Source of the DNA: Patescibacteria group bacterium
GTDB taxonomy: Bacteria; Patescibacteriota; Microgenomatia; UBA10105; UBA927
Reading direction: 5' to 3'
Length of the DNA stretch: 64,000 nucleotides
NCBI GenBank assembly: GCA_041753515.1
Contig: JBGSUE010000040.1
Location: forward strand, 8,290 to 72,289
Below the pieces are notes generated by a model, which was not told where the DNA came from, did not search any database, and was given only the letters and a program-made list of their open reading frames with translations. Position numbers and translations under genes: made by a program. Every line of letters begins with the position of its first letter. Within the stretch, counting starts at the first letter, position 1. Positions 1 through 47,638 of the stretch are shown here, piece by piece.

Positions 1-1667
1 AGAATATTTTCTTCCCTTTTTCCTTTTTCCTTTTTCCTTTCACCTAATGACGGGTATCTTAAAAAGTACCACGAACTATCTAAAAATGTATCAGAAACGT
101 CCGTCTCACGCCTGGCATCCCCACCGCAATGAGGACATTTTACTTCATAAAATTCCGTATGTTTTGCCAAAGGAGCAATACTGTCATCGCCAGGACGGTA
201 GTCTTCTATACGGGGCAGCAGTACCGGCAATTGACCATTGGGCACTGGAAACCAACCGGCCATATCAGAAAATGCAGATTCTTCTGAATATGTGATTCCT
301 TTTGTAAAACAATATTTACAAAATATCATCGGAATCGGTGGACCCCAATATCTTTGGCGCGAAATAAGCCAATCACGCAGGTGATAGGTAGAAACCCGTT
401 TCCCCCATCCCATCTTTTCCATATGGTCCATCATTGCGGCAGTTGCTTTATGAATATCCATACCATTCAGAAATCCTGAATTCATCATAATTCCTTCATC
501 TTCCTGAACATCGTCAATGTGTGTAATACACCCGTCATTATTGGCTGTTTTAACAACACGTATGACCGGAATATCAAATTCCCGGGCAAATTCAAAGTCC
601 CGTTTGTCATGACCGGGCACTCCTACAACCGCTCCGGAACCAAATCCCATAAGAACAAAGTCGGAAATGTACACAGGCATCAGTTTTCCATTTAGATCGT
701 TTTGACAATATAAACCAGTAAAGACTCCGGTCTTCTTTCTCCCTTCTTGTGCTCTTTCCTCAGATGTAATCTGTGATACACTTTTTATATATTGCTTGAT
801 TTTTTTACTCTGATCCTGATTTATCACTGTCAGAATCTGACTGATAATTTCATGCTCAGGAGATAGAGCAACAAAGGTGGCCCCAAAGTTTGTATCTGGT
901 CTTGTAGTAAAACATATAAGGTCAAATACATATTTATGATCTCTATTGACTACCTTATATGTAATATTGATTCCTTCCTTTTTCCCGATCCAGTTTGTTT
1001 GTGCGGTTTTCACAATGTGTGACCAATGAAGTGCGGGAATGTTTTCCAGTAATTTTTCCGCATATGCGGTAATTCGAAAAAACCATTGTTCTAAAGATCT
1101 TTTTGTTACATTATTTCCGCATCTCTCGCATTTTCCATCTATAACCTGCTCATCAGCCAAAACCGTTTTACATCCCGGACAAAAATTAACCTCCGCCCGT
1201 TTCCGGTATGCCAGGCCGTGTTTAAACATCTCCACAAACAACCATTGAGTGAAACGGTAGTAATCCGGATCATACGTTTCCAGGGTTTTGTCCCAATCAT
1301 ACATTGCTCCTATCTTGTGAAGCTGTGCATAAAATTTTTTCTGCGTAACCAGAGCATGGTCCATTGGATGGCGTCCTATTTTCAATGCGAAATTTTCGCT
1401 GTGAATGCCAAAACCGTCCAGTCCAATAGGCTCAAACACATTGAAGCCGCACATTCGCTTGTAGCGGCCGAAAATGTCCGCACCGGTAAATGCATACATG
1501 TTTCCCACATGCAGGCCTTCAGCGGATGGATACGGAAACATCATAAGATTGAAAAATTTCTTTTTCGTATCTTTGACATCCGTACTATTCTGTCGAATTG
1601 TGTTCCAACGGGACTTCCATTTGGTTTCGATATCTGTATGATTAAACATAGGTGTAGTATATACCAT
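1..1667 (-). CDS. leuS: leucyl-tRNA synthetase, N-terminal ~555 aa (gene runs off the window start; no in-window stop, hence absent from the ORF track)
   Basis: Minus-strand frame open from ATG at 1665-1667 (MVYTTPMFNHTDIETKWKSRW...) to position 1. It contains PYPSAEGLHVGN (HIGH-like), LeuRS-specific HLRDWLISRQRYWGPPIP, zinc-knuckle CPGCKT...CERCG and TFLDSSWYFLRYP. Confidence 0.9.
   Translation of the reverse strand, partial: MVYTTPMFNHTDIETKWKSRWNTIRQNSTDVKDTKKKFFNLMMFPYPSAEGLHVGNMYAFTGADIFGRYKRMCGFNVFEPIGLDGFGIHSENFALKIGRHPMDHALVTQKKFYAQLHKIGAMYDWDKTLETYDPDYYRFTQWLFVEMFKHGLAYRKRAEVNFCPGCKTVLADEQVIDGKCERCGNNVTKRSLEQWFFRITAYAEKLLENIPALHWSHIVKTAQTNWIGKKEGINITYKVVNRDHKYVFDLICFTTRPDTNFGATFVALSPEHEIISQILTVINQDQSKKIKQYIKSVSQITSEERAQEGRKKTGVFTGLYCQNDLNGKLMPVYISDFVLMGFGSGAVVGVPGHDKRDFEFAREFDIPVIRVVKTANNDGCITHIDDVQEDEGIMMNSGFLNGMDIHKATAAMMDHMEKMGWGKRVSTYHLRDWLISRQRYWGPPIPMIFCKYCFTKGITYSEESAFSDMAGWFPVPNGQLPVLLPRIEDYRPGDDSIAPLAKHTEFYEVKCPHCGGDARRETDVSDTFLDSSWYFLRYPSLGERKKEKGKREENI
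17..44. repeat. heptanucleotide tandem repeat (TTTTTCC)x3 plus TTTCACC inside the leuS CDS; encodes a K/E-rich insert ERKKEKGKREE on the minus strand
   Basis: Direct reading of 17-44: tttttcc tttttcc tttttcc tttcacc. Total length is in-frame. Confidence 0.7.
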
Positions 1668-3774
1668 TGTTATAAGGCATGACAAGAATATACATTTCTT
1701 GCCACTTTCGCCCTCTTTATCCCGAATAATAGAAATTATATACAGTTTTCACACGCATATACACGTATAATTTCACAGGATACGTATGTTCGTAAGTCAA
1801 TCAGTCACTCAAAGGTGAAAATATATATATGTCTTATATCAATAGCCTAAATCAATCTAGCACTCATTGGTTATAAGTGCCATTTAACATAATTCGGAGC
1901 TAAATTATCTTGCGGGAATAATTAAATTGAATAGAAATATATTCGTGAATATTTACACCTCGATATGATAAAATAATTATTATAAGTTTTATAATAAACA
2001 TATTATCGGTTATAAGCTAGTTATAGATCGTTATAACGGTATTATTATTTCCCGGATGGATAATTTATTGATCAAGTAGTACTGAGTAATATACTGCATA
2101 TATTATTAAATATTTATTTAAATATGATGTCCTATGGTATAGAAATCTGCGGCTAAATATGTACATGCGTTAAATCGTGAATAGTAATTTTTACACTCAG
2201 GCATATTCCTCATCCTATTCATACAGATATTGATTCATCAAATAGATATGCATCGCTTCAAATTTATTTGCATAGATATACTTTATCAAAGCTTATTCCG
2301 GCATCCTAAAATATTTTCTTACCATTAGTATTTCAGTATTATGATCATGTAGACAAAAAAATCTGCCATTTCCTCGTTTTCAATTTATTCCAACGTACCT
2401 GCTCATACCTTCCACTATTTTATTTTTGTACAATAGGCTCTTGAATATGTATTCACCAGAAGTCGAAGAAACTAGCGAAATGTTTTTGCACTAAATGGAA
2501 TACGGGAATACCGTAAGTATCAATGAACCAGTTCATGATGGTTACTTACCAGATTCACACTTTATGTTAAAAAATAATTACATCATTGATTAATGACAAA
2601 CTACAAATGCTCACTGCTCTCATGTCTGAATGTACCCGACTTTTAAACACGTACAATAAAAACATCACTTTTTTCTTTTGTCGTAAAATATTCAACTCTC
2701 CTCCACTTTACATTTTTAATAGTTATTGATACGTCGTAAAAATTTTTATGAAATTTACATTATACATATAAAAATTTAAAAATTCTCACTATTGCATAAT
2801 AAACCTATAATATATTCTTCTTTTTATAATTATCTTTCCGTCACTAGTCGTACAAAATATTTTGGTATACTCTGCTCTAAAGATACAAATCTAATCTCAT
2901 ATACGTCGTAAAATTTTATATCAAATAAACATACCGGTAATACATATTTATTAAATCGTCGTAAAATATATACATTATCTGTCGAACGGCCTCACGAACA
3001 GGATTACAAATTTTCAGGAGAAATATTTATTAATTAGCCAAACTCAACCGAATATAATAAAACGGGATACAGACATCCACCAATTATTTCATTATATTGA
3101 TTCTATATACACATCTCTATTATTACTTCAGCATTTTACACTTCAATATCAATATAGTACTAAATGATATTTAAAACATCTATATATTATTTAATATTCT
3201 TTTTTATATATTAATACGACTTAAATGGATTGTTCTTGCGTGAGCCCCATAACCGAATCTGCATATCTTTAAATCTTTCATTAGAATACAGAGAAATTCC
3301 GCATACCTTTCCATTTTCAGTCGGACTCCGGGTGTTTGAAAAACCTTTCACTGTCATATTCAACGCAATCCCCATTCTTTATCCGACGTGCGCGATTCAC
3401 GGCTACTATTGTGCTCTGTTCAGTTCACTATCTATGCCGGTTGAGGAATTTTTCATCCGTTATATGGCATTTCAAAGGCTTACGGAAATGAGAGTTTTTT
3501 TATTAACTTTAGACTGTCATGTCAGTATGAAATATGAAATACTTTGAGGCTAAATTAGCAATCTCACTCTCTCATCTGCTAAATATCAATAATATCATTA
3601 GAACAGGAAAATCGTGGTTTTTGAAGCTAAAATATACTATATACTCCTCACTTTCCCCGAGTCATATTCATTTTTCAAACAATAACTATCTTATAGGACT
3701 CACCAAACTGATGTCAATTTTTCACTTTTTCCGGATTTCTATATCTAAAGATATCAATGAAGGACTTAACTACA
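1668..3774. other. 2.1-kb AT-rich region with no credible ORFs, between the leuS start and the 3' end of the pilin cluster
   Basis: Base composition far more AT-rich than flanking CDS. Stops in all six frames. The only track ORFs (3230-3547, 3534-3887) are low-complexity. Confidence 0.6.
2678..2970 (+). repeat. five same-orientation direct repeats of core [T]ACGTCGTAAAAT (iteron-like), spaced about 52-116 bp
   Basis: Copies at about 2678-2690 (ttgtcgtaaaata), 2730-2742 (tacgtcgtaaaaa), 2846-2860 (tagtcgtacaaaata), 2902-2917 (tacgtcgtaaaatttt) and 2955-2970 (atcgtcgtaaaatata). Confidence 0.6.
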
Positions 3775-5313: not shown

Positions 5314-7383
5314 ATGATCCAGTTGTATATCTTTACAGAGAAAGCCCACGTAGGTATGATGGGGTCTATCATGACATCACGGATTGCTTTGGCAATACTC
5401 CTGTCTACAGTTGCAGTTTTTTATACCGGGTTCGGTGAGATATTCCAAACGCCGAAATTTTTTCTTCTGACTGGATCGACCCTCATACTCCTGTGTATTT
5501 TGGCCGTCAGGATAGTATTCGTCAACCGTATACCCATCCCGCGAATCGGCCTATGGACCGGATTTCTTGCTCTTGCCGTATCCTCGCTGATCACAACGGT
5601 ATTTTCCGGTTCAAACATCAGCGACCAGCTCAACGATCCTGTTGCCAGCCCATGGGTATTTTTCAGTCTTGCCCTTCTCTCGCATTTCTTACAGACTGCT
5701 TCTACCCGGGGAGCCACAACACTGCGATATACATATATCATCCTCGTCTCTATCCTTTCGATACTTTCCATCTATATGTACTTTGGTCTGGGAGAGATCA
5801 TGTTTCCGGCATCAGATATCCTGAAAGACAAACTATTTACTCCTGTTGGCAATCCGTATGTGCTTTTTGCACTGCTCGTCATGGCTATACCGGCGATTCT
5901 TTTTTCCATACAAAACGCGTACAGGCATACCCGGGATATTGATGTAGGACTCTATACCATAGCCGGGCTCTTGGTTCTCACCGGTACCGCTTTTTTAGGT
6001 ATCCAGCTTGCCCAAACAGCTTCAACATCACTCCTGCCCCTTTCTTCCGCCTGGTCAATACTCATGGAATCATATAAGACGTTTAAAAATGCGCTCGTCG
6101 GTGTGGGTTTGGACAACTATATCAGCGCATTCAATGCCGGCCGTCCGGCACAGCTCAACACAACACCCATCTGGAATCTCCGGTTCACTTCAGGCCCAAG
6201 CTTATTTTTCCATATTGGGGCAACTCAAGGATTGGTGGGGATCTTTGCATTTTCCGTATTTCTTATAAACATCGTGAAGTCAGTGAAAAATAACCCGGCA
6301 TGGTATAGGTTCAGTACGATTTTTCTTGCCGTGCTGTCCCTCTTTATCATCCAGCCTCATCTTGCCCTGTGGACGGGTCTCATATTCATCCTTCTTCCAC
6401 TCACGAAAAATTCCAACTCAAACCACGATGCATATCTCATCATTCATCAGCGCTGGGTTGCATGGGTTACTGCATCCGCGACTATTCTTGGCTGTGCCAT
6501 CCTTTTCATCTTCTGGTGGCGTTCTCTTATGGGAGAAATTGTATTCGGCCAGTCTTTGTCTGCCGCCTCCAATAATGACGGTAAAAAAACGTATGAAAAG
6601 CAAATTCAGGCAATCGGGTATAAACCGGACAAAACAGCATTCCATATCGCCTATTCCCAAACCAATATATCACTAGCAAATTCCATTGCTTCACAGGCCG
6701 AAAACAACCTGAATACGCTCACTGAAGAAGACAAAACTCTTTTCTCTCAACTTATCCAGCAGGCCGTCAGGGAAGCGAAAACTGCCACAACTCTCTCGCC
6801 AAGAAACGTCCTGGCATGGGAAAATCAGGCTAAAACGTATCAGGCGATTGCAGGTGTCGTCACCGGCTCCGACCAATGGGCAATCGCATCGTATCAGGAA
6901 GCCATCAAGCTGGATCCGACGAATCCGCTTCTTCGCATGGACCTTTCAGGTCTCTTTATGCGTTTGGGTAAATTTGACGAAGCGATCCAGGAGCTCAAAA
7001 CTGCCTCGTATCTCAAAAACGATCTTGCCAATATCCACTACAACCTCGCCTATGCTTACGGACAAACAAAGGCGTATTATAACCAGGCTGTAGAGCTCAA
7101 ACGGACAGCAGCGCTTATCGATCCCTCAAGCGAGGATGCAAAAAAAGTAGAAGATACACTGAAAGAGGTTGTAATCGAATTAAATGAACAGGAAAAAACC
7201 TCTTTTTCTGAAATTGTGACCGGTATTCCGGCAATAGACCAGATCCCGCTCTCAACTCCAAAACCCGAACCGGTTTTCGAGATCGAACCGAAGCTGGATA
7301 TTCTCCCCGAAGAGGCAACAACATCTTCCTTACCGCACCCTTCCCCAGAGAGCACCGGCGGAGATGAAACAGTAGAGAACTAA
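5314..7383 (+). CDS. O-antigen ligase (Wzy_C/WaaL/PglL-PilO) family polytopic membrane protein with C-terminal TPR repeats; candidate pilin O-oligosaccharyltransferase
   Basis: About 12 TM segments. Wzy_C-like block GVGLDNYISAF...SLFFHIGATQGLVGIFAFSVFL. C-terminal TPR-like AYYNQAVELKRTAALIDP. Divergent from the pilin genes. The start could instead be MMGS at 5356. Confidence 0.65.
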   Translation: MIQLYIFTEKAHVGMMGSIMTSRIALAILLSTVAVFYTGFGEIFQTPKFFLLTGSTLILLCILAVRIVFVNRIPIPRIGLWTGFLALAVSSLITTVFSGSNISDQLNDPVASPWVFFSLALLSHFLQTASTRGATTLRYTYIILVSILSILSIYMYFGLGEIMFPASDILKDKLFTPVGNPYVLFALLVMAIPAILFSIQNAYRHTRDIDVGLYTIAGLLVLTGTAFLGIQLAQTASTSLLPLSSAWSILMESYKTFKNALVGVGLDNYISAFNAGRPAQLNTTPIWNLRFTSGPSLFFHIGATQGLVGIFAFSVFLINIVKSVKNNPAWYRFSTIFLAVLSLFIIQPHLALWTGLIFILLPLTKNSNSNHDAYLIIHQRWVAWVTASATILGCAILFIFWWRSLMGEIVFGQSLSAASNNDGKKTYEKQIQAIGYKPDKTAFHIAYSQTNISLANSIASQAENNLNTLTEEDKTLFSQLIQQAVREAKTATTLSPRNVLAWENQAKTYQAIAGVVTGSDQWAIASYQEAIKLDPTNPLLRMDLSGLFMRLGKFDEAIQELKTASYLKNDLANIHYNLAYAYGQTKAYYNQAVELKRTAALIDPSSEDAKKVEDTLKEVVIELNEQEKTSFSEIVTGIPAIDQIPLSTPKPEPVFEIEPKLDILPEEATTSSLPHPSPESTGGDETVEN

Positions 7384-8346
7384 ACCGGTGAAAAACCCCT
7401 TCACGGCAAACGGAAGCCCCTTTTCCTGATACATGAATACGAGAAATTTCCGGATGAGAAATATGTGAAACAGCAAAATGAAACCAAGAATCGATGCGAT
7501 CAGTCCGGGAATCATACCAAACGGCATCCAGTATGCAAGTGCACTCACGAGTATGAGAACTCCAAACAATCCTACCACACCCACCCCGGAGAGTGCGGTG
7601 ATGGCTTCCTGAAGCGTAGTTGCCACAGGGTCAAAGCGCTTCCGGTGTGAATACAGTTTGGTCCAGTAGTATGCCCGCAGGAAATATTTTTTGGCAATCG
7701 GCCAGAAATCCTCAAATTCATGATGCACCCGGACACTCGGCGCGAATATGATGGCATATCTTCTGGCGATCCGGTAGGTTAGCTCGATATCCTCAACGAG
7801 CGCCCCCGGATACTTTTCATCAAACCCACCAAGACGCAAGAATACGGATTTTTTAATCGACGCAATGCGTGTTGAAAACAGAAAGTAGTAACCGGATTTA
7901 TCCCGTTCGTTGATCCAGTAACTCCAATCCCGCAGAGCTTTGAAATTCGGAAAGAATGCGTCTGTTTTCTGCTCTTTTACCCATACACCGGTTACTGCCA
8001 CGACGTCGGGGTCGTCCTGATAGATATTGGCAAGATTGGCAAGCGTATCGGGAAACAGCACGACATCTGAATCTAAAAATACAAGAAACTTGCCTCTGGC
8101 TTCTTTGGCACCCCTGTTCCTGGCCGCCGCCGGTCCTTTGTTTTGTTTTACGTTTATTATTGTTAAAATTTTATTCTTTTTTTGAGATTTGGGATTTGGG
8201 ATTTGGAACTTTACCCTACTTCCATCATCAACCACAATCACTTCATATGCCGGTGCCTTTCTTGAGGCATAAATTGAGTCCAGAAGTACCCCAATCGTCG
8301 CCTCGCTATTGTGGTATGGAATGATGATGGAGAGATACGGTTTCAT
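7330..8346 (-). CDS. family 2 glycosyltransferase with low-complexity insert and C-terminal TM helices
   Basis: IIIPYHNSE...VVDDGS...NKGPAAARNRGA...FLDSDV. Insert VKFQIPNPKSQKKNKILTIINVKQ sits between the DDGS and NKG blocks. Confidence 0.8.
   Translation of the reverse strand: MKPYLSIIIPYHNSEATIGVLLDSIYASRKAPAYEVIVVDDGSRVKFQIPNPKSQKKNKILTIINVKQNKGPAAARNRGAKEARGKFLVFLDSDVVLFPDTLANLANIYQDDPDVVAVTGVWVKEQKTDAFFPNFKALRDWSYWINERDKSGYYFLFSTRIASIKKSVFLRLGGFDEKYPGALVEDIELTYRIARRYAIIFAPSVRVHHEFEDFWPIAKKYFLRAYYWTKLYSHRKRFDPVATTLQEAITALSGVGVVGLFGVLILVSALAYWMPFGMIPGLIASILGFILLFHIFLIRKFLVFMYQEKGLPFAVKGFFTGLVLYCFISAGALWGRVR
8186..8206. repeat. perfect heptanucleotide tandem repeat (GATTTGG)x3 inside the GT2 CDS; minus strand CCAAATC x3 encodes PNPKSQ
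   Basis: Direct reading: gatttgg gatttgg gatttgg. 21 bp, so in-frame. Confidence 0.75.
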
Positions 8347-9495: not shown

Positions 9496-9498
9496 ATC

Positions 9499-9590
9499 AA
9501 TTATGAATTAATAATTACGAATGACGAATTTAATAAGGTAAATATTGCACATATCAATTCATAATTCATAATTCGTAATTCATAATTTCT
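9499..9590. repeat. inverted pair of (AATTCRT)n heptamer arrays flanking a 22-bp spacer, between the acetyltransferase stop and the aminotransferase start
   Basis: Left arm 9499-9533 is in reverse orientation. Right arm 9556-9590 reads aattcat aattcat aattcgt aattcat aatttct and overlaps the last codons (KKL) and the stop of the upstream gene. Confidence 0.7.
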
Positions 9591-10116
9591 TAATCGTTCT
9601 AGCCGGAACTCCTGCAACAACTGTTTTATCAGGAACATTTTTCGTAACAACCGCTCCTGCTCCAACCACCGCGTTTTCACCCACTTTGACTCCGGGCAAG
9701 ATGATTGCACCTGTTCCGGTATACGACCCTTTTTTAAATACAACTCCATCTTCTTTTGTGGGATATGAATCCTGAAGCGGATGGTCCGCATACCCGACGT
9801 TGATATGCGATACGACGCTCGTCCGGTTTGAAAGTGTCACATCGTCCCCAATCTCTATACCGCCCCGCACATCCAGCATAACCTCATCACCTACAAAACA
9901 CCTGTCGCCTATCGTTAAACGCGAAAAACCGTAATGATAAAGATTGGCAAGCGTAATATTGCCGATAATGGTATCGCGTCCGATCCGTGCGCCAAAAAGG
10001 CTCATAAGCAATACCCTGCTTTGGGGCAAAATACATAAATGGAGAATTTTGACTATTACACCATAAAAAACAAACTTAATAGCCTTCGCAAAACCAATGC
10101 TTTGAAGAGCCTTCAT
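9580..10116 (-). CDS. hexapeptide-repeat (LbH) sugar N/O-acetyltransferase (PglD/WbbJ-like)
   Basis: IGDRCFVGDEVMLDV...IGDDVTLSNRTSV...VGENAVVGAGAVV are left-handed beta-helix repeats. Confidence 0.75.
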   Translation of the reverse strand: MKALQSIGFAKAIKFVFYGVIVKILHLCILPQSRVLLMSLFGARIGRDTIIGNITLANLYHYGFSRLTIGDRCFVGDEVMLDVRGGIEIGDDVTLSNRTSVVSHINVGYADHPLQDSYPTKEDGVVFKKGSYTGTGAIILPGVKVGENAVVGAGAVVTKNVPDKTVVAGVPARTIKKL

Positions 10117-10124
10117 ACATACGT

Positions 10125-10250
10125 ATTATATACCCATCTTACTCAGGTTTGCAGCTCCGATGGAGCAAAAAGCTGATTACCTGCCTGCCGGCAGGCAGGG
10201 ATGGGTGGATACTAAAAAACTGCATACATACCTGAGTTTTTTTAGTATAC
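10125..10250. repeat. palindromic intergenic element (termini ACTCAGGT...ACCTGAGT) containing the perfect 20-bp palindrome CCTGCCTGCCGGCAGGCAGG at about 10180-10199
   Basis: Direct reading. The same 20-mer recurs at about 53502-53521. Confidence 0.65.
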
Positions 10251-10257
10251 ATGTTTT

Positions 10258-10289
10258 CAATTCGTAATTCGTAATTCATAATTGTTAAT
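10258..10289. repeat. (AATTCRT)n heptamer array: aattcgt aattcgt aattcat aattgtt
   Basis: Direct reading. Overlaps the stop of the GT2 at 10285. Confidence 0.7.
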
Positions 10290-11037
10290 TTTCTCTTACT
10301 TCACCCTGTTTTGTAATCAACCGGCGCCACAGACCAAAAAGACTTTGCATATAATCAATCGTATCAGGTATCAGATTCACGGTCGAGCGTTTATCGATCC
10401 TGCGCAGGAATAAAACCGGCACTTCCCTGATGCGAAGATTCGCAGCTCTGGCAAACACCATAATCTCCGTATCCCAAAACCAGTGTGCATGCCGGGTTTT
10501 CGTCAGAACCGGCAAGATTTTTTTCCTGTTGAAGAATTTATAACCGCTTTCCGTATCCATTTTATTGGTTCCCACCATCTTGTCTGAAAGATACCGGTAT
10601 CCGACGCTCGCAATTTCGCGGATGATCGAATGGATATTCGTACGGTATACCCGTGTTCCGATCACTACATCTGCGTCATCATTCATGATGATACGGACAA
10701 TCTGTGGGATATAAACAGGCGATACTTCAAGATCGATATCGATATATCCTGCAACTGTTGCGCGCGAAGCCCTGATACCATCCATGACTGTTCTTCCCCG
10801 CCCCATGTTTTTTTTGTGGAAAAGTGCTTTCCAGTTTTTATGGATTTTGAGCTCATGCCTGATAAGTTCAGGAGTGGAATCAGTTGAGGCATCGTCCACA
10901 AATATGATCTGCCACCTGAATCCTACATCGGATAAAACGCTTTCGATCGTCCGGACACTCTGGACAAAATGTCCTTCCTCGTGATATGTGGGAAGAATGA
11001 GGGAAAAATCGAACCGCGTGGACCGTTTTTTCTTCAT
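10285..11037 (-). CDS. GT2 polyprenyl-phosphate sugar synthase (DPM1/ArnC/GtrB-like)
   Basis: FSLILPTYHEE...FVDDASTDST...IDIDLEV...TRVYR. Sits between a GT-C gene and the aminotransferase/acetyltransferase pair, an Arn-like arrangement. Confidence 0.8.
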   Translation of the reverse strand: MKKKRSTRFDFSLILPTYHEEGHFVQSVRTIESVLSDVGFRWQIIFVDDASTDSTPELIRHELKIHKNWKALFHKKNMGRGRTVMDGIRASRATVAGYIDIDLEVSPVYIPQIVRIIMNDDADVVIGTRVYRTNIHSIIREIASVGYRYLSDKMVGTNKMDTESGYKFFNRKKILPVLTKTRHAHWFWDTEIMVFARAANLRIREVPVLFLRRIDKRSTVNLIPDTIDYMQSLFGLWRRLITKQGEVREN

Positions 11038-15317: not shown

Positions 15318-15785
15318 ATGAAACAGGCGTTTCTCGATTCAAGCGTCCTGTTTACAGCCGTCAACTCCCCAACCGGCGGATCAGCCAAACTGTTTACTCT
15401 CCCAATTCAGCTTGTCACATCAACGTTTGTGTTGACAGAAGTCGAACGAAATGTCCGGGAAAAACTGCTCTCTCATCATCTGGACCGGTATTTCATACTT
15501 GTTAAACAAATGAAGATCGTGGAGGGTAAATCGGATACTAAACTGATTGAAAAAGCCAAAAAAGTCATTGTCGAAAAAGACTCACTTGTTCTTGCAGATG
15601 CCAAACTGTCACATGCTGAGTATCTGATCACTCTGGATCTCAAGTACTTCTTCACTCCACAAGCCCAAAAATTTCTCAAACCCACCCTCATCCTCACCCC
15701 AAAATGCTCATTGAAAAAATTTCCTGACTGTTTTAACGACCGTTTCGGTTTCGGAGTCAGTCAGTTCAGGAAACAGCGGCAGTGA
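15318..15785 (+). CDS. vapC: PIN-domain toxin (VapC-like)
   Basis: Acidic residues at FLDSSVL, TEVE, ADAK and ITLD. Follows the antitoxin by 6 bp. Confidence 0.7.
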   Translation: MKQAFLDSSVLFTAVNSPTGGSAKLFTLPIQLVTSTFVLTEVERNVREKLLSHHLDRYFILVKQMKIVEGKSDTKLIEKAKKVIVEKDSLVLADAKLSHAEYLITLDLKYFFTPQAQKFLKPTLILTPKCSLKKFPDCFNDRFGFGVSQFRKQRQ

Positions 15786-16814
15786 TAAAACTTCCCTGCT
15801 CTGTGCTTCAGACTCGGGGAAGTCGCCTTTTTTGTAGCCTAAATATGCAAATGCTTTCGTCAGGTGGACCGGGACGGGATAATGGACGGCACAGCCAACA
15901 CCATGATCCAAAAGATGTTTCATGAGCTTATCTCGTTTCTTTGTGCGTACAACATAAAGATGATGACTGGATTTGGAGGAAGGTGAAAGGTGAAAGGTAA
16001 AAGGTGAAAGGTCTCCGATATTTGATAATTCCCGGTCATAAAACGAAGCAATTTCCTTCCGTCGTCTATTCCATGCATCCAGATGCCGGAGCTTGATGGA
16101 AAGAATTGCCGCCTGCAGTTCATCCAACCGTGAGACGCCTGATACAACTTCACTTTGGTATCGTGCTTTCTCCCCGTACTGCCGCAGCATTTTTACGCGG
16201 CCGGCTAATGAGGATGAATCCGTCACGATCATTCCCCCGTCCCCCATGGCTCCCAGATTTTTTGACGGATAAAAACTGAAAATTGCCGCGTCTCCCAGTG
16301 TCCCAACTTTTTTCCCCTCAATCACTGCTCCATGCGCCTGTGCGGCATCCTCTAGTAGATATATCTTTCTTTTCGCATTATTGAGTATATTTTGTAGACC
16401 GATAATATCTGCCGGATTGCCATACAGGTGTACCGGAATCACGGCTTTTGTCTTTTCCGTCACACGCTTCGCCAGATCATCGGCAGACATGTTTCCGTCC
16501 GGTCCGCAATCTGCCAACCGTATTGCAGCACCGGAAAGAGCTACCCCAAACGCATTGGGGTATGCATTGGCAGGGATGACAACCTCATCACCAGGCATAA
16601 GTCCGAACGCTTTCAGTACCAACGTGAGGGCATCCGTCCCGCTGGCCACCCCTATTGCATGATAGCTGCCCAGATAATCGGCAAACTCATCTTCAAACAT
16701 TTTCACTCGTGGCCCCAATGTAAAGTACCCATTCTCCATGACCGTATGGACTGCGGATTTCAACTCTGTTTCGATACTTTTATACTGTCTGGTTAATTCA
16801 AATATTGGAATCAT
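15708..16814 (-). CDS. DegT/DnrJ/EryC1/StrS-family sugar aminotransferase (second copy)
   Basis: 368 aa. LLEDAAQAHG...FSFYPSKNLGAMGDGG. Contains a repeat-encoded insert SPFTFHLSPSS. Confidence 0.85.
   Translation of the reverse strand: MIPIFELTRQYKSIETELKSAVHTVMENGYFTLGPRVKMFEDEFADYLGSYHAIGVASGTDALTLVLKAFGLMPGDEVVIPANAYPNAFGVALSGAAIRLADCGPDGNMSADDLAKRVTEKTKAVIPVHLYGNPADIIGLQNILNNAKRKIYLLEDAAQAHGAVIEGKKVGTLGDAAIFSFYPSKNLGAMGDGGMIVTDSSSLAGRVKMLRQYGEKARYQSEVVSGVSRLDELQAAILSIKLRHLDAWNRRRKEIASFYDRELSNIGDLSPFTFHLSPSSKSSHHLYVVRTKKRDKLMKHLLDHGVGCAVHYPVPVHLTKAFAYLGYKKGDFPESEAQSREVLSLPLFPELTDSETETVVKTVRKFFQ
15974..16008. repeat. heptanucleotide tandem array (GGTGAAA)n: ggaggaa ggtgaaa ggtgaaa ggtaaaa ggtgaaa, inside the aminotransferase CDS
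   Basis: Direct reading. Minus strand reads TTTCACC units, the same unit that ends the leuS array. Confidence 0.7.
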
Positions 16815-16821
16815 AATGGTC

Positions 16822-16883
16822 TGTCATTCTGAACAAAGTGAAGAATCTATTCACTAGATCCTTCGCTCACGCTCAGGATGACA
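16822..16883. repeat. inverted-repeat element E2 (TGTCATTCTGAACAAAGTGAAGAATCT ... AGATCCTTCGCTCACGCTCAGGATGACA)
   Basis: 8 bp upstream of the aminotransferase start at 16814. Overlaps the 3' end of the GT2 pseudogene. Confidence 0.7.
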
Positions 16884-17586
16884 AACGGTACAGTATCATA
16901 TCAATAATCGTCGGAATGATGGTTCTAAGGCTTCCTCCCCCCGCCCCTTCCTCATCGGTCCGGGCTTTGTGGGCAATCGTTGTTTCCGCCACACGAAAAC
17001 CGGCACGGACCGCATCGATAATCATCTCCGCATCCACAAATGCGGAACGGGTTGAAAGATCAATCGAATCAATGACTTGTTTTTTTACGAGCCGGATGGA
17101 ATTGACGTCATGAATACTGATCCCGTAGAAGAATTTAAGAAGTGTATTGTAAATTTTCGACTGCCGCAAACGCGTTTCCGGATCCCTGCGGTTCACCCGC
17201 CAGCCGATAATCAAATCTGCATCACCTACAAGTTGTGCCAATGTTTGCAGTTCTTTGGGGTCCAGCTGTCCGTCACCGGGAACGGTAAACAGCCACTCAT
17301 ACCGTCAGGTTTTATAGAGTTCCTGTATGGTTCCCCCATACCCCTGATTCACCGTATGGGTTAAAACAGTAAGTTGTGGGTATTTCTTTAAAAGATTATT
17401 CAATACATCGCCCGTTCCGTCACGGCTTGCATCATTTATCACCATGATTTCGTATGTCCTGGTAATTTTTTTGGCAATAGTATCTGCTTTTAAAATTACT
17501 GATGCAACAGTCTCTTCATCATTGTATGCAGGTATGAGGATTGATACGGACGGAAAACGCATAGGATATTTTCCATATGATATCAT
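16873..17586 (-). pseudogene. DPM1-like GT2 with a single in-frame TGA at 17305-17307 (two track ORFs, 17305-17586 and 16873-17241, share one frame)
   Basis: Continuous translation is ...NQGYGGTIQELYKT[TGA]RYEWLFTVPGDGQLDPKELQTLAQLVGDADLIIGWR... The DxD-region alignment is uninterrupted, so one codon is replaced by a stop. Confidence 0.55.
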
Positions 17587-17706: not shown

Positions 17707-19263
17707 ATGAATGTAATTATGAGATTAACGAAAAATTTTATTCTTTTCTTTTTTATCGCCCAGATATACATATTCCTCTCCAATTATCATCTTCTGATTC
17801 TTGCGTCCCATACGCCGCAAGGCGCCAGATTTACGTGGAACCATATTGCCTACTGGTCCATGGACCACAATGTCTACCTGTCTGTCATCAATCAGGGAGC
17901 GCGCGGTGAGTGGCTCATGCGGGATGCGTACACCGCAGAGCCCACACATCCGACGTTTTTCTATTTCTTCTATATACTTCTCGGGAAAATAAGCGGTGCC
18001 CTCAACATCCTGCCTGATACCGCGTATCTGTGGGCTAAACTTATCGGCGTTGAATTTTTTGTCCTGTCTCTGTACTTTCTCAGTAAAAAAATACTGGGAA
18101 AGAATGGCATATGGGCTTCACTTCTTGCACTGTCCATAAGCGCCCTGCCGGTCCTCAACTGGGATACCCGCTACTACCATGAATTCTGGCCCTGGTGGGC
18201 CCGCTTTGATGCAATCCTGCGTCTGGACAACATGCCCCACTACCTCTGGAGCTGGGGACTATTATGCCTCTTTGCCGCCACCTGGTTTTCATATATGAAA
18301 GGAAAAAAAACTTATCTTCTTGTGCTATCTTCTATCTTCTCCCTTCTATCCTCTATGTTCCTCCCCTCGTCCGCCATCCCCATCATCGCGGGTCTGGGCG
18401 TCCTGTGGCTGCTATCCAAAAAACACCGCACCGGCACAGCTTTTTTTGTAGCAGCAATCGTCGCCATTCCGCTCCTATTAACCTACCGGGAAAAATTCAA
18501 CGGTTTTCCATGGACTGAGTGGTACCTATTTGAACTTGACACATGGAACCGCCAGGCAACCCATTTCAATATCGAATTTTTGCTTTCAGCCGGATTATTA
18601 CCAATCCTGGCATTGGTCGGCATACGGAAAAATAATCCTTCCTCCATTTTTCTGGCAGTGTGGGCTTTCCTACCCTTTTTTCTTCTCCCTTTCTCCTCAC
18701 TCCTGGGGCTCTCCAAATACCGCCTGGCATCAACCGGCGTCTTTATCCCATTCGCGCTTTTAAGCATTCAGGCTATTCAATATTTCAAAAAAACCGGTGT
18801 TTTGCTGATATGCATCTCTATTGCTTTTTCAATCATCACATCACTTTACATTTTCACCAATCTCAACCGCACCGCCCAAGAATACCCTGTTTACGCAAAC
18901 GTGTATATTCCAAAAGAAATGATGGATATTTTTTCATATCTCAATACGAATGCAGACGCCACCGATGTGATTGTGAGTGACTGGGTCAGCGGTAACCTAT
19001 TCCCTGTTTTTACACCCGTTACGGCATTCACAGGCCACCCTGTCCACACAAGAAACTTTTTCGATAAAACCGCATGGTATGGATCATTGTACCGGGGAGA
19101 ACTGACACAAAAAGACGCGGAAACAAAGCTTGGGGAATACCGGATTACATATATTCTTCACGGACCTGCGGAAAAGAGAATCGGTGTATCGCTGTCAGCA
19201 TATACGTTCCTGAAAAAAGTGTATGTGATGGGAGACTATAAATTATACAAAGTAGAATTATGA
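17707..19263 (+). CDS. polytopic membrane protein of an uncharacterised GT-C-like paralog family (member 1 of 7)
   Basis: N-terminal signature FTWNHIAYWSMDHNVYLSVINQGARGEWLMRDAYTAEP. C-terminal signature AYTFLKKVYVMGDYKLYKVEL. More than 10 TM segments. Confidence 0.55.
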   Translation: MNVIMRLTKNFILFFFIAQIYIFLSNYHLLILASHTPQGARFTWNHIAYWSMDHNVYLSVINQGARGEWLMRDAYTAEPTHPTFFYFFYILLGKISGALNILPDTAYLWAKLIGVEFFVLSLYFLSKKILGKNGIWASLLALSISALPVLNWDTRYYHEFWPWWARFDAILRLDNMPHYLWSWGLLCLFAATWFSYMKGKKTYLLVLSSIFSLLSSMFLPSSAIPIIAGLGVLWLLSKKHRTGTAFFVAAIVAIPLLLTYREKFNGFPWTEWYLFELDTWNRQATHFNIEFLLSAGLLPILALVGIRKNNPSSIFLAVWAFLPFFLLPFSSLLGLSKYRLASTGVFIPFALLSIQAIQYFKKTGVLLICISIAFSIITSLYIFTNLNRTAQEYPVYANVYIPKEMMDIFSYLNTNADATDVIVSDWVSGNLFPVFTPVTAFTGHPVHTRNFFDKTAWYGSLYRGELTQKDAETKLGEYRITYILHGPAEKRIGVSLSAYTFLKKVYVMGDYKLYKVEL

Positions 19264-21804: not shown

Positions 21805-21839
21805 AATTCATAATTCGTAATTCATAATTTGTAATTGAA
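21805..21839. repeat. (AATTCRT)n heptamer array: aattcat aattcgt aattcat aatttgt aattgaa
   Basis: Lies between the epimerase stop and the SGNH start at 21773. Confidence 0.7.
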
Positions 21840-29363: not shown

Positions 29364-30574
29364 TGCACAATAAGCACTTCATCATTCTTCTTCTTTGTGC
29401 CGGATTCCTGTTCAGATTGTACTTCTTTTCCTGGACGGAAACGCGCCTTATCCATGATATGGAAACCAACCATACGCATGCTCTGACTCTCATGGAGGGT
29501 AAGATTGCCACCGACTGCTGCAATAAAAACGTGGAATATAGCATGTTTTTGGCAATAATCTACTCTATCTTTAAAACCACAGAATTGTATCCCGTCAAAA
29601 TACTCCAGATTCTCATGGATGTTTCGACAGGATTCCTGCTGTATCTCACTGCACAAAAAATCAACAAAAAATCAGCTATTCCTGTACTCATCCTCTATCT
29701 GTTCAATCCGTTGACCAGCGCATTTACCGGATTACGGCTTGCCGAAATACTTACGATTTGGTACATCACACTTATTGCGTACGTTCTCACACTCAAAAAA
29801 TCACCGCTCCTATGGCTGGCAGTCGGACTACTTCTCGGAAATCTCGTATTCGTGAGGCTCCAATTCTTTTACTTCTCCGTAGTCTTTATTATATTATTGG
29901 TATTACAAAATAAATTCCGGCTGAGTGTTTTTATTTTACTGTGTTCCGGATTTCTTCTGGGTAGTGCCTATATGCCTATTGCCAATTATGCCAATTACGG
30001 AAAAGCGTCCTTCACCCCGCCATACAACTGGATGTGGGGAGTGGGACTGTATTCCAATTTTTACCGCGAAACGCGCAAGAGCGAAATAGAATCACCGCTC
30101 AATAAAACGCCAAATCTCACCGAATGGCGGATTTTCGATGAATACCTGTACGCGGATTCGCTTGAAACAACTGCCAATCTCGAAAAAAAATACAAAGCAC
30201 TTTTTATAGAAAAAATCCGTACAGATTGGCTCCTGTTTACGAAACACCAGATGCAGAATATCATATGGTTGTGGGATAAAAACCACCTATCCGAATACAT
30301 CGACCCATACTACCCTGCCAATGAAATCCCTGTTCGTATATATAATTTCATATTATTGGTTTTGTCTGTATTTGGATTTTCGCACTACGCAAAGCGAAAA
30401 ACTCTCCGCGACCCCTTTTCCCTTTTGACCTTTTCCCTGTTTCTGTATATCACGTTCATGTTTTCCCTCGTTTCAAACGAATCCCGCCAGACTCTTGCGT
30501 TTTATCCCCTCATCTTCCTCTGGGCCGGATACGGAATATCAAATACATTTAGTTTTAAAACTGATCAATCCTAA
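29363..30574 (+). CDS. ArnT/PMT_2-like GT-C membrane glycosyltransferase
   Basis: LLYLTAQKINKKSAIPVLILYLFNPLTSAFTGLRLAEIL is paralogous to 48611-49885 and 54275-55522. Confidence 0.55.
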   Translation: MHNKHFIILLLCAGFLFRLYFFSWTETRLIHDMETNHTHALTLMEGKIATDCCNKNVEYSMFLAIIYSIFKTTELYPVKILQILMDVSTGFLLYLTAQKINKKSAIPVLILYLFNPLTSAFTGLRLAEILTIWYITLIAYVLTLKKSPLLWLAVGLLLGNLVFVRLQFFYFSVVFIILLVLQNKFRLSVFILLCSGFLLGSAYMPIANYANYGKASFTPPYNWMWGVGLYSNFYRETRKSEIESPLNKTPNLTEWRIFDEYLYADSLETTANLEKKYKALFIEKIRTDWLLFTKHQMQNIIWLWDKNHLSEYIDPYYPANEIPVRIYNFILLVLSVFGFSHYAKRKTLRDPFSLLTFSLFLYITFMFSLVSNESRQTLAFYPLIFLWAGYGISNTFSFKTDQS

Positions 30575-36374: not shown

Positions 36375-38018
36375 ATGAAATCCACATATATTGCACGAGC
36401 GTTTCTTCTCACCATTTTTCTGTTTATCATTCACCTCTTTATCATCAATGATTATTCAATCAACTGGGATTTCCACCATGTCTTTTTTGCAGGTCTCTAC
36501 CACACCGGGCATCCTGTCACACGGGATCTCTGGTATGGCCTACCGTTTAACGATCCGGACCCCATGCGGATGGTGGAAACTCCATTCGGTCCGCTCCAAT
36601 CTGCTATTCCGGTATTATCGTATACGACGTTTTTCGAAAAACTGAAACTATTGCCGTTTGACAGCGCGTTTAATCTTCCTGCAGTTCTGGCCGGTTCTGC
36701 CGGAGTTTTTATTCTGTTTCTCTTTCTTCTGGAAACATTCAACCCCGCAACTGCCTGGGCAGGATTTTTATTCCTGGCATTGTATCCCAGGTTTTGGGGA
36801 GATCTTCATACAAACGTTAAGGATATCCCGACTGCCGTTCTGTATACCCTCTCAATCTATCTTGCCTGGCGGGCAGTCAACCGGAGGATTTGGCCGGATA
36901 TCATTGCCGCAGGCATTGCCACAGGCATAACTTTTAATCTCAAAGTAAACGCCATATTCATACCGATCATTATTGCCGTTTGGATCTTGTGGCTTCTTGC
37001 AACACCTGCCAAAAAACACCTGACAAAACCATTCGGGAATGTGTGGGACAACATCATTACTCCCTTCGGTTGTTATGCCATTATTGCAGCCTTGTCCGCT
37101 TTCGGCATTTGGTCTTTGTTCTGGCACAACCCCTATGACCATCTGGCATATCTGATCCGTTTTTTCCAGTACAACACAACGAATATGGAAGTAATTTTAA
37201 ACGGCTTCTGGTACTGCAGCGGTGTCAATATTCCCTGGTATTACCCCTTCTGGTATCTTGCCATCGTCACGCCGTTGCCTACCCTCATATTTGCAGTCAT
37301 AGGTTTTATGCGTCTTTTCTATCTTGCGCTCATTAAAAAACACCCATTATCTTCGCTCATCATCTTTTGGTTTTTTATCCCGCTTATCAGGTTTATGGTT
37401 CCAAATGCCTCCGTTATCGACGGCATCAGGCATTTTGAGGAAGTCATCTTTCCTTGGCTTGCAGCCGCCGCCATCGGTGCAGCATTTCTTTACAATACAT
37501 TTCTTTCAAAGAAATTATCCGTTCTCCGTCTACCGTCTGCCGTCATTCTATCTGTCTATCTTCTATCATCTATTCTCTCCTATCACCCCTACCAGCTCTC
37601 CTATTTCAATGAACTGGTCGGCGGACTTCCCGGAGCAGTCGGAAAATATGACGTCGATTACTGGGGAATATCGCAGAAAAAAGCCGTAGAATGGCTGAAC
37701 GTAAATGCCAAACCCAACGCAAGCATTCACATTATCATGTCTGCAGACGTGGCCGGAAAATATCTCCGGCCTGATCTTCTGGCAAACCTCAATAAAACGG
37801 ATTACGACAGTGCCGATTACGTGGTCGTCCTAAACCGACAATCCTTCTTTTACCGGTTTTTCTACTCGTGGGAATACTTTTTGAGACGGAAAACCGTATA
37901 TGAAGTGAAAGTGAAAGGCGTACCGCTCACCAGCATTTATCAAAATTCACTGGGAAAATTTGAAAGAAGACCTAATTGGTGGCAGGGAGAAGATCCTTGC
38001 ATGAGAAAATACTGGTAA
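36375..38018 (+). CDS. GT-C-fold membrane glycosyltransferase-like protein (PMT/ArnT-like)
   Basis: 547 aa, polytopic, with a C-terminal soluble domain. Confidence 0.5.
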   Translation: MKSTYIARAFLLTIFLFIIHLFIINDYSINWDFHHVFFAGLYHTGHPVTRDLWYGLPFNDPDPMRMVETPFGPLQSAIPVLSYTTFFEKLKLLPFDSAFNLPAVLAGSAGVFILFLFLLETFNPATAWAGFLFLALYPRFWGDLHTNVKDIPTAVLYTLSIYLAWRAVNRRIWPDIIAAGIATGITFNLKVNAIFIPIIIAVWILWLLATPAKKHLTKPFGNVWDNIITPFGCYAIIAALSAFGIWSLFWHNPYDHLAYLIRFFQYNTTNMEVILNGFWYCSGVNIPWYYPFWYLAIVTPLPTLIFAVIGFMRLFYLALIKKHPLSSLIIFWFFIPLIRFMVPNASVIDGIRHFEEVIFPWLAAAAIGAAFLYNTFLSKKLSVLRLPSAVILSVYLLSSILSYHPYQLSYFNELVGGLPGAVGKYDVDYWGISQKKAVEWLNVNAKPNASIHIIMSADVAGKYLRPDLLANLNKTDYDSADYVVVLNRQSFFYRFFYSWEYFLRRKTVYEVKVKGVPLTSIYQNSLGKFERRPNWWQGEDPCMRKYW

Positions 38019-45636: not shown

Positions 45637-47638
45637 GGCAGCAAACAGTAACCAAGGATATTGCTAAACCCGTCAAAAACGATTCAGGTACAAATGTAAA
45701 TTCTACCACATGTTCACCCCCGGGAACTTCTACTGCACGGAAGGCAAGATTGTTTGTGATGACTGGTACCCGTTTGCCGTCGATGTACGCCCGCCAACCC
45801 GGATACATGACTTCACTTGTGGCAAGATAGGCGTTGCATGGAGAGTTGAGCGTTAAGCGTACAGAGTTAAGCGTTATGCGATCTTGGATAATTTTCGAAG
45901 TACTAACGTCTTCACAATCATTTGAAGTTTTATCCGTAACAAGAAGTGTTGTCTGCGGATCATACTTCCGTGACCGGATTGCGGCGGCGACTTCTTGCCT
46001 GTCTGAAAAAGTTTTCGCCTCCCCCGCAATATAAAACCGCGGTAGGACAGCCGAATTCTCATACAGACGTAGTCCGTAAGTGTCACTTGTATAAAGGAGT
46101 TTATACTGACTATTGCCTATTAACGTATCATACGCAAACGGAACAAGAACATACTGGACGTTAAGAAAATTTACATATGGAGATGTCATGTCCACATATG
46201 GAATTTGGACGTTGTGCGATAAAATACTCGACGTTTCACTTCCGTTTGACGCATCAATAAAATCATAATAATTTGAAAGCATCGACGGATCGTACCCAGT
46301 TGCCGACTCAACTCCATACACTATGCCAGCATCAAAATCGAATGCATTACGCTCTTGAATCCAGTTTGCATAATTCGGGAGTATCCGTCCGTTTTTTAAA
46401 GATCGTATTGTTGAATCATATGTCAACTCCGGCAAAGGTTTGATTTCAATCAGATGTTTTGCAGGGATATACAGTTCTATAAACAAAATACAGACAAACA
46501 GACCACGCAGCCAACTTTTCCGCACAAGCGAAAATCCTGTTCCTGCAAGACACGATACCGCAAAAACGGACAATACCATGTGACGCGCCGGAAAACGGAT
46601 ATGCCTATATAACGGCATCAGTTCGTATAGTATTTTATTTCCGTCTACTGGGCTGTTTGGTCCAAATGAAATCCAAAGTGCAAACAATGCGATGAGTGCA
46701 AATCCGATAGTACGCTTTTTTATTAATGCATACACGGCCAAAAACAGTGCTGTAACACTGAAAAAGAAAGCTTGTTCATGATAGTTTGGCGGAGGCCCTA
46801 CAAATGTTGTTTGATCTCCTAAGATAAACGGACTAAACAATTGTTGAAGCGATGAGGGGACAAGCGATCCCACGCTCACCCACTCATACGGAAAATCGGT
46901 ACTGCGCACACTTTTTCCCATAAATTCCGCCTGCGGCAACAACTGGAATGCGGACAGCAATAGCGCAAGACACAAAGATATCGACATAACGACAAAAGAT
47001 TTCACTGATTTTTGCAGAAGCATGAGAATACCGACGGCTTCGAGTGTAAACATAGCGACAGTCTGATATCCTGCAAGAATCTGAAAAGCAAGAGATACTG
47101 CTGCCAGAAGAATATGTTTCCGTGTCGGTGTACGAAACAGTAACATGAAACTACCAATGACAAACGGTATAAGCGCGCTTGCCGCCACTGTATCTGCGTG
47201 TCCGGCCCAAGTGCGGGCCAGAAAATACTGGGACAATCCGAACGCCAGTGATGCACCGATTGCACTTACCGTATCAAGCCGGAGGACTTTTTTTGAAAAC
47301 CAGTACATTGCCCAGAGGGCGATAAATATATGTATCGCAAACGTCCAACCGTATGCCGCATTGAACGGCATGAAAAAAAATTTCCAGTTGACCGGATAAA
47401 AAGCGGCAACAGACGGATTTGCGGCATACGGCATGCCGGAAAATACATACGGATTCCACCACGGGAATTGTCCGGATAGAATGCTGCCCACAAAATACCT
47501 GCGGAAAAAACCGTAGGAGCGCCACATGTCATCGGCAAACAGTGCATACCCGTCGGGGGGGAATAAAACCTGACCAAATAAAAACAGAACAACCGAGACA
47601 AACAGAAGAAAAATAATTATAGATTCTTTTATCCACAT
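45614..47638 (-). CDS. YfhO-family GT-C membrane glycosyltransferase
   Basis: GQFPWWNPYVFSGMPYAANP. C-terminal periplasmic domain MYPGWRAYIDGKRVPVITNNLAFRAVEVPGGEHVVEF is typical of YfhO. Confidence 0.75.
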   Translation of the reverse strand: MWIKESIIIFLLFVSVVLFLFGQVLFPPDGYALFADDMWRSYGFFRRYFVGSILSGQFPWWNPYVFSGMPYAANPSVAAFYPVNWKFFFMPFNAAYGWTFAIHIFIALWAMYWFSKKVLRLDTVSAIGASLAFGLSQYFLARTWAGHADTVAASALIPFVIGSFMLLFRTPTRKHILLAAVSLAFQILAGYQTVAMFTLEAVGILMLLQKSVKSFVVMSISLCLALLLSAFQLLPQAEFMGKSVRSTDFPYEWVSVGSLVPSSLQQLFSPFILGDQTTFVGPPPNYHEQAFFFSVTALFLAVYALIKKRTIGFALIALFALWISFGPNSPVDGNKILYELMPLYRHIRFPARHMVLSVFAVSCLAGTGFSLVRKSWLRGLFVCILFIELYIPAKHLIEIKPLPELTYDSTIRSLKNGRILPNYANWIQERNAFDFDAGIVYGVESATGYDPSMLSNYYDFIDASNGSETSSILSHNVQIPYVDMTSPYVNFLNVQYVLVPFAYDTLIGNSQYKLLYTSDTYGLRLYENSAVLPRFYIAGEAKTFSDRQEVAAAIRSRKYDPQTTLLVTDKTSNDCEDVSTSKIIQDRITLNSVRLTLNSPCNAYLATSEVMYPGWRAYIDGKRVPVITNNLAFRAVEVPGGEHVVEFTFVPESFLTGLAISLVTVCCLILLLRR

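Follow-up and report, generated by a model that had tools for sequence, protein, structure and literature searches.

Heptanucleotide simple sequence repeats (SSRs) are reported to be over-represented in many bacteria, and a polymerase-footprint explanation has been proposed; in one account (PMC4692102, citing Mrazek 2007), the systems described in detail are the short tandemly repeated repetitive (STRR) arrays of the cyanobacteria Calothrix and Nostoc and the GGGAATC repeats of Xanthomonas. Heptanucleotide switches are also on record. Those of Haemophilus influenzae comprise 8-38 units (PMC2651432), and the neuO gene of Escherichia coli K1 carries 3-53 units (mode 20), with measured switching and 65.6% of genomes in the OFF state (PMC13001214). 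In phase-variable species, SSRs are reported to be enriched at N-terminal positions (PMC3315296). Our literature search turned up no report of tandem repeats in Gottesmanbacteria or in the candidate phyla radiation (CPR). Here we describe heptamer arrays in a 64,000-nt stretch of DNA from a Patescibacteria group bacterium (contig JBGSUE010000040.1; hereafter, the window), focusing on three that lie within genes for a GT2-family glycosyltransferase, a sugar aminotransferase and leucyl-tRNA synthetase (leuS). We consider it probable that such arrays arise by a heptamer-biased slippage process filtered by selection, and we do not regard them as demonstrated on/off switches.

Period-7 arrays in the window and its lineage

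Tandem arrays with a 7-nt period are in clear excess, both in the window and in loci related to it. Using Tandem Repeats Finder (TRF) with a cutoff of at least 2.8 copies and at least 80% matches, and dinucleotide shuffles as the null, we detected 8 period-7 arrays in the window as compared to 0.08 per shuffle, and none of any other period above 3. Exact runs of at least three copies, surveyed for periods 5-15, likewise occur at period 7 only. Chance or a compositional artefact was considered as the source of the arrays and rejected based on the exact-run survey and the shuffles. We then extended the comparison to 80 loci, together 1.24 Mb, that surround GT2 orthologs in different species (individual loci are cited by L number). 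These contain 88 period-7 arrays versus 20, 33 and 37 for periods 6, 8 and 9, and 1.0% of their random 90-nt windows score for period 7 versus 0.15 to 0.46% for periods 6, 8 and 9.

Together, the window and the related loci (1.30 Mb) hold 96 period-7 arrays, of which 69 lie in open reading frames (ORFs), 8 at ORF edges and 19 in intergenic DNA. Coding DNA makes up 92% of the total, so per base the arrays are about 3-fold denser in intergenic DNA. Among the 69 coding arrays, T-richness on the coding strand goes with hydrophobic peptides (mean hydropathy +1.66) in transmembrane segments, and A-richness with polar linkers (mean hydropathy -1.07). Array lengths were also considered as evidence for selection on reading frame, given that coding arrays peak at 29-33 nt, the size of a seed plus 21 nt. 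Because 7 of the 19 intergenic arrays are of this same length, the peak is not evidence for frame selection, and we discarded the argument.

The three arrays on which we focus were first pointed out in a first-pass annotation made from the DNA letters alone; all are present, all are coding and the peptides named for them are correct. The GT2 protein (338 residues, 7330..8346, minus strand) matches Pfam PF00535 Glycos_transf_2 (E=2.3e-28) and has C-terminal transmembrane helices. Its array, at 8181..8206 on the minus strand (TRF, 3.7 copies, 94% matches), encodes FQIPNPKSQK at residues 47-56; positions 8186-8206 are an exact (GATTTGG)x3 on the plus strand, or (CCAAATC)x3 on the coding minus strand, accompanied by a variant or partial unit, giving a coding-strand reading of TTC CAA ATC CCA AAT CCC AAA TCT CAA. 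Immediately 3' of this array (8176-8185), the coding strand reads CAA AAA AAG. This run of seven A residues fits the slippery heptamer A AAA AAG in the zero frame and is possibly a slippage site itself. The second protein, a DegT/DnrJ/EryC1-family sugar aminotransferase (368 residues, 15708..16814, minus strand; PF01041, E=2.7e-101), carries an array at 15980..16012 on the minus strand (4.7 copies, 92% matches) that encodes DLSPFTFHLSPS at residues 268-279. Its unit is CTTTCAC on the coding strand and AAGGTGA on the plus strand. The third gene, leuS, is represented by its N-terminal 561 codons (3..1685, minus strand; PF13603 and PF00133) and extends past the window start; the full protein, P0121, has 849 residues. 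Its array at 15..44 on the minus strand encodes GERKKEKGKRE and includes an exact (AAAAAGG)x3.7 at 15-40, or (CCTTTTT)x3.7 on the plus strand, that specifies ERKKEKGKR (residues 549-557 of 849). On the coding strand, a variant unit, AGGTGAA, precedes the exact array.

Two further statements made about these arrays hold in part. They had been described as always being in-frame multiples, with totals of 21 or about 35 bp. We measure 21 to 26, 33 and 26 nt for the GT2, aminotransferase and leuS arrays, respectively, corresponding to 3.7 to 4.7 units rather than to a multiple of three units, and only leuS represents a clean gain of 21 nt. That the arrays are in frame is in any case uninformative, because frame is preserved by definition in any intact ORF. 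The second statement was that TTTCACC, at the end of the leuS array, and GGTGAAA, from the aminotransferase array, are reverse complements and hint at a shared origin. The two are reverse complements, with TTTCACC being the diverged terminal unit of the leuS array; the match is statistically marginal, and the case for a shared origin is weak.

Four additional coding arrays in the window had not been noted before, and all of these are found in membrane proteins of glycosylation type. A (CCCTTTT)x4.1 array at 30413..30443 (plus strand) encodes PFSLLTFSLFL in a membrane protein, and two adjoining arrays at 37526..37573 (plus strand; units CCGTCTA and TTCTATC) encode LRLPSAVILSVYLLSSI in a PMT_2-like membrane glycosyltransferase. 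More degenerate is the array at 45845..45880 (minus strand, 72% matches), which encodes RITLNSVRLTLN in a YfhO-like membrane protein, as is the T-rich array at 18313..18365 (plus strand; unit TATCTTC), which encodes YLLVLSSIFSLLSSMFLP in another membrane protein. For the latter, a 21-nt period (1.9 copies, 85% matches) is a better fit than one of 7 nt (69%), as expected of the product of a seven-codon in-frame duplication of three diverged heptamers.

Array turnover in insertion-tolerant loops

The arrays are located in loops that tolerate insertion, in agreement with the earlier placement of their peptides at loop positions. In alignments A1, A2 and A3, length is hypervariable exactly at the array positions. 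The GT2 stretch between the motifs VVDDGS and NxGPAxARN ranges from 13 to 73 residues across orthologs (A1), and the AlphaFold2 (AF2) model places the array region in a coil linker between strands 33-41 and 60-66, with a mean predicted local distance difference test (pLDDT) score of 57 for residues 51-60. More distant GT2 orthologs keep a helix-like TDxTxxxl segment at this position; in the clade to which the window's protein belongs, the linker stands in place of the alpha-2 helix that is canonical for the GT-A fold. For the aminotransferase, residues 263-286 are modeled mostly as coil, between a helix (232-262) and a strand (287-290).

The GT2 is conserved across Gottesmanbacteria at 50-76% identity, and its loop is a recurrent site of array formation. 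A clear period-7 array is present in 12 of 57 other orthologous GT2 loops, an enrichment of about 22-fold over background (1.0% of random 90-nt stretches from the same loci reach this score), and each has its own unit. Examples include (GTGCAAA)x4.7 in L007, (AGTTAAA)x4.7 in L009, (GAAATCC)x4.6 in L013, (CTCAAAA)x4.7 in L065, (ACAAATT) in L045, (CTTCACG)x4.3 in L049 and (ATTACGA) in L056, with others in L018, L014, L008 and L010. Arrays are scattered over the neighbor-joining tree, and sister species differ in unit (L007 versus L013; L004 versus L009). The nearest GT2 relative of the window, L002, has an unrelated loop of 38 residues. To judge from the aligned loci, then, arrays have recurred at orthologous sites with different units. 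A possible starting point is apparent in the peptide KFQIP, encoded by AAATTCCAAATCC, which is common to several GT2 clades and already constitutes a proto-repeat of 1.9 copies; it is plausible that AAATTCCAAATCC is the ancestral seed of the GT2 array. Two other hot-spots behave like the GT2 loop and carry T-rich arrays in transmembrane regions. One lies at nt ~800-940 of the GT2 gene (e.g., L003 10852-10942, L019 8099-8130 and L065 1621-1657), and the other is in an upstream membrane protein (peptide CYLLFVICYLL) in L042, L054, L074 and L078.

In LeuS, the loop following SSWYFLRY canonically reads YPSVGAKTAxxxPFD. The window protein is longer by exactly 7 residues (+21 nt, three units), which the canonical form lacks; this and the L002 GT2 loop indicate that the inserts are lineage-specific. 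The proposal that the expansion process also reaches an essential gene, in which only in-frame states are seen, is supported as well. Other species have unrelated inserts of up to ~60 residues in the LeuS loop, two of which retain weak 7- and 14-nt autocorrelation, and within 90% clusters the loops are stable. Length variants in the LeuS 90% clusters were examined as candidate loop indels and rejected, as all represent alternative N-terminal starts.

In the aminotransferase, comparison with the nearest orthologs does not reveal a simple gain of 21 nt. Between GD and HL(F/Y)V, the loop is 16 residues long in the window as in L002; the shortest and commonest orthologs have loops of 11 to 14. L050 has CTTTCACTTCC at the array position, a likely seed. 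Other orthologs have polar 7-periodic peptides at this position (ISNIKFQISN, NSKFKFQN); in L010, degenerate heptamers are apparent in the DNA.

Units also change in concert. The L003 (TGTCAAA)n and L008 (TGTCAAC)n arrays, in GT2 proteins that are 88% identical, are equal in length and differ by an identical substitution in all units. At the two other hot-spots, whole-array substitutions between species include TGTCAAA versus TGTCAAC and TTTGTTA versus CTGTTAT. These changes across all copies of an array constitute concerted evolution.

Other classes of sequence enter the same loops. GC-rich palindromes (CCTGCCGGCAGG, translated as ..PAGRQ..) and elements resembling miniature inverted-repeat transposable elements (MITEs), translated as VIPAKAGI or LDSRFRGNDK, are found in frame in these hypervariable loops. 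Sites of these two types include 10184-10195 and 53505-53516 in the window, the GT2 loops of L033, L038, L016 and L019, and the LeuS proteins P0128 and P0183. The GT2 proteins P0042 and P0383, which are 99.1% identical, differ only by a 14-residue (42-nt) insert that is a translated GC-rich palindrome.

Such divergence might reflect positive selection on the protein, in which the low-complexity peptides are adaptive loop variants, for instance in glycosyltransferase specificity or interactions, and heptamers are only the mutational route. Within one 90% protein cluster (P0059, P0375 and P0376; pairwise identity 85-92%), the first GT2 loop is wholly different in both sequence and length, and the replacement of the alpha-2 helix by a linker in the window's GT2 clade could be interpreted in the same manner. 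However, the inserts that this loop takes are chemically unrelated, spanning polar heptamer peptides and palindrome and MITE-like translations over 13-73 residues, which is predicted by relaxed constraint, and we found no conserved motif among them. Because the loop accepts any kind of insertion, we favor relaxed constraint and consider adaptive variation a very improbable origin.

The phase-variation question

The GT2 and aminotransferase arrays had been put forward as a classic slipped-strand phase-variation switch for surface glycan genes. As contingency loci, they would gain or lose one heptamer at high frequency and thereby turn these genes off and on, as neuO does. Because 7 nt is not divisible by three, a change of one unit in either direction frameshifts an intact ORF. 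Both genes lie within a glycan-synthesis cluster, the GT2 array is 5'-proximal (15% of the ORF), and a coding heptanucleotide switch is already on record in neuO (PMC13001214). The fast turnover and concerted change of the arrays furthermore imply that copy number changes often. Finally, in L003 the reading frame of a ~3.3-kb gene changes exactly at an array, (GTCAAAA)x4.1 at 17534-17562.

Other evidence points away from switching. The window arrays are short, at 3 to 4.7 units as compared to mostly 8 to 40 in the heptanucleotide switches on record (PMC2651432, PMC13001214), and those in the GT2 and aminotransferase genes are imperfect, each with a variant unit. All 79 GT2 orthologs stay in frame across the loop, among them about 12 that carry arrays, whereas neuO is OFF in 65.6% of genomes. 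The 69 coding arrays are distributed flatly over ORF quintiles (13, 15, 11, 19 and 11), without the N-terminal bias of phase-variable species (PMC3315296), and the aminotransferase array lies at 74% of its ORF. Similar arrays are present in leuS, an essential gene, and within the transmembrane segments that many genes encode. We also detected no truncated near-identical proteins in a database of 5.8 billion clusters. These findings do not support the interpretation as a classic switch, and we view phase variation at these loci as distinctly unlikely. Annotators should not call short coding heptamer arrays phase-variation switches without population data.

The L003 array at 17534-17562 deserves separate description. 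Its frame runs through GDVVVINQKSKVKTGKT to a stop, and GEDVDNKGVLMKAEKAYDQKLIGIISTNP follows in a different frame; a single ORF is recovered if 7 nt are added or 14 nt removed. We regard this as a candidate out-of-frame allele or an assembly error. Following in silico edits of ±7 and ±14 nt at all 96 arrays, it was the only site that looked like a real frame change, and other split-gene candidates, mostly arrays adjoining gene ends, were set aside.

Sequence databases provided relatives of the window proteins at some distance. The best relatives of the GT2, LeuS and aminotransferase proteins, at 50-76% identity, come from metagenome-assembled genomes (MAGs) of Candidatus Gottesmanbacteria, Microgenomates and Patescibacteria, and we assign the window to a Candidatus Gottesmanbacteria genome. 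Proteins identical to the three derive from one 88-kb NCBI contig; Logan has records of the GT2 and aminotransferase as well, and the contig retrieved from it with the GT2 (L001; run SRR28170473) matches the window exactly. No closer strain was found in the databases searched; the protein database yields the identical protein and then a 74% relative, and the 90% clusters are singletons. A search of metagenome contigs for the flank pattern with a variable gap of 7-35 nt returned no match.

Additional features of the window were also noted. A second GT2 gene (16873-17586, minus strand) is interrupted by a single in-frame TGA at 17302-17304 (GGTIQELYKT, stop, RYEWLFTVPGDGQLDP); possible explanations are pseudogenization by a nonsense mutation, a sequencing error and codon recoding, and the interruption is unrelated to a repeat. 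We considered and rejected the possibility that this split results from a heptamer frameshift, as the interruption is an in-frame TGA. Downstream of leuS, ~1.5 kb (1686-3210) lacks any ORF of at least 50 codons, and Rfam and tRNA scans of the window, this segment included, returned no match. The first 4 kb of the window has a GC content of 35% as compared to 43-46% elsewhere.

Origin of the arrays and comparison with known systems

The model we find most probable is that replication or repair in Gottesmanbacteria creates and remodels tandem duplications of 7-nt period far more than those of other periods. Strand slippage would begin at short proto-repeats, of which AAATTCCAAATCC (GT2 loop) and CTTTCAC (aminotransferase loop) are examples, and selection in coding DNA would purge states that break the frame or disturb the fold. 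Given such purging, coding arrays would be found only in insertion-tolerant, length-hypervariable loops or in transmembrane segments. Three successive heptamers would be read in all three frames to give a 7-residue low-complexity peptide, with arrays that are A-rich on the coding strand supplying polar linkers and T-rich arrays hydrophobic stretches. Turnover through birth, homogenization of unit variants and decay would be fast on an evolutionary timescale, making the arrays a source of diversity in loop length and sequence between species.

Several points weigh against this model. Slippage as the mechanism is something we infer rather than observe directly, and the same applies to the reason for a length of 7 nt and to the selective neutrality of the encoded peptides. 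The gain of 21 nt in the essential leuS implies either a one-step addition of three units or intermediates that were tolerated. The aminotransferase loop equals those of its nearest orthologs in length; simple expansion is therefore insufficient, and compensating deletions must be assumed. Units are also non-random within a genome, where 17 of 198 array pairs share a unit class as compared to 1.1 expected; such sharing of unit families is generally real. Lastly, some related loci contain hairpin modules consisting of a heptamer array, a spacer of 15-25 nt and an inverted array (L016 10845-10945 and 3520-3620; L050 9912-9990; L010 589-659; L069 2893-2950). The L016 modules are in frame, one inside the GT2 ORF (10845-10945, z=-3.8) and one inside another ORF, and hint that copying and spreading, or some structure-dependent process, operates alongside local slippage.

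These last two points raise the alternative of a dispersed heptamer element capable of self-propagation, or of a functional nucleic-acid motif such as a hairpin or protein-binding site, that lands in frame inside genes and either constitutes the arrays or gave rise to them; cyanobacterial STRR sequences, REP elements and the Rickettsia palindromic elements would be comparable. Each genome having favored units is in keeping with this idea, and the best candidate in the window is (AATTAYG)n. Arrays of this type occupy six intergenic sites (9499-9530, plus; 9556-9587, minus; 10259-10290, minus; 21805-21836, minus; 36290-36321, plus; 39768-39799, minus) in short spacers of the glycan-gene operon, where they begin at or right after the upstream stop codon. 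The AATTAYG pattern has 17 matches in the window versus 0.07 expected, and arrays of at least 4.6 copies are found on more than 120 metagenome contigs. Moreover, the unit in the L056 GT2 loop, ATTACGA, is the same unit that is intergenic in the window. Array-spacer-inverted-array modules fold well. At 9496-9592 in the window, an array pairs with its inverted copy in a hairpin whose stem is ~30 bp long (RNA minimum free energy -26.1 kcal/mol, z=-5.3), in addition to the L016 GT2 module mentioned above.

However, the units of the GT2, aminotransferase and leuS arrays are unique, and we found no convincing inverted partner for these arrays within 120 nt; the one weak pair in this range (14 nt, 79%) overlaps the aminotransferase array at its edge. 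The units of the three arrays correspond to local seeds that orthologs conserve, namely the AAATTCCAAATCC of KFQIP in several clades and CTTTCAC in L050. The tendency of the second GT2 hot-spot to form a hairpin differs inconsistently from one species to another (z from -4.3 to +1.2), and Rfam has no match in the window. Considering the lack of inverted partners and the inconsistent hairpins, we treat a spreading element as a minority rival and judge it quite improbable.

Slippage filtered by selection remains our preferred reading, but a more specialized alternative can be envisioned. In this scenario, which we hold to be unlikely though slightly less so than either switching or a spreading element, a dedicated or lineage-specific heptamer dynamic would have favored units spread, form hairpins and rewrite the loops of glycan enzymes in frame. 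Such a process would amount to a coding counterpart of STRR sequences and would serve as a built-in generator of diversity, possibly also a low-frequency switch, for the surface glycome of episymbionts. CPR bacteria have tiny genomes and rely on surface contacts with their hosts. If loops are indeed rewritten as we propose, the process would offer cheap protein and surface diversity in glycosyltransferases, sugar aminotransferases and membrane glycosylation enzymes, and would extend even to an aminoacyl-tRNA synthetase. The orthologous hot-spots with unit turnover provide a natural experiment in the birth, homogenization and loss of microsatellite-like arrays in bacteria, one that bears on why 7 nt is favored and on how much low-complexity insertion conserved folds tolerate.

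Several known systems share features with these arrays. The Rickettsia palindromic elements, reportedly described by Ogata et al. in 2000 as dispersed sequences of 100-150 bp found in frame in protein-coding genes, are said to illustrate the tolerance of repetitive DNA in frame at surface loops of conserved, even essential, proteins, and the L016 modules resemble them. These elements differ in being palindromic rather than tandem heptamers, and the three window arrays lack a palindromic partner. The E. coli K1 neuO (AAGACTC)n array is similar in that a heptamer array lies within the ORF of an enzyme that modifies a surface glycan, is translated only if the total keeps the frame, and yields a 7-residue peptide repeat from three units (PMC13001214). 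That array is at the 5' end, whereas window arrays occur anywhere in the ORF, with 3-4.7 units and no OFF allele seen. The H. influenzae repeats at the hmw1A and hmw2A promoters and at a TonB-dependent receptor are also 7-nt SSRs at genes for surface structures, but number 8-38 copies, lie mainly in promoters and are documented to vary in copy number between strains (PMC2651432).

The arrays of Gottesmanbacteria belong with heptanucleotide SSR-rich, STRR-like genomes. The likeness to the STRR and Xanthomonas repeats (PMC4692102) includes strong over-representation of 7-nt units relative to other periods, numerous dispersed arrays ranging from a few copies to tens, a few favored units per genome, some inverted pairs able to form hairpins, and extensive variation in length and sequence between related species. 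STRR and Xanthomonas units are G-rich and quadruplex-prone, and the arrays described are mainly intergenic. The Gottesmanbacteria units are instead AT-rich, most of their arrays are short (typically 4 to 5 copies), and 72% (69 of 96) lie within ORFs, recurring in the same loops of conserved enzymes.

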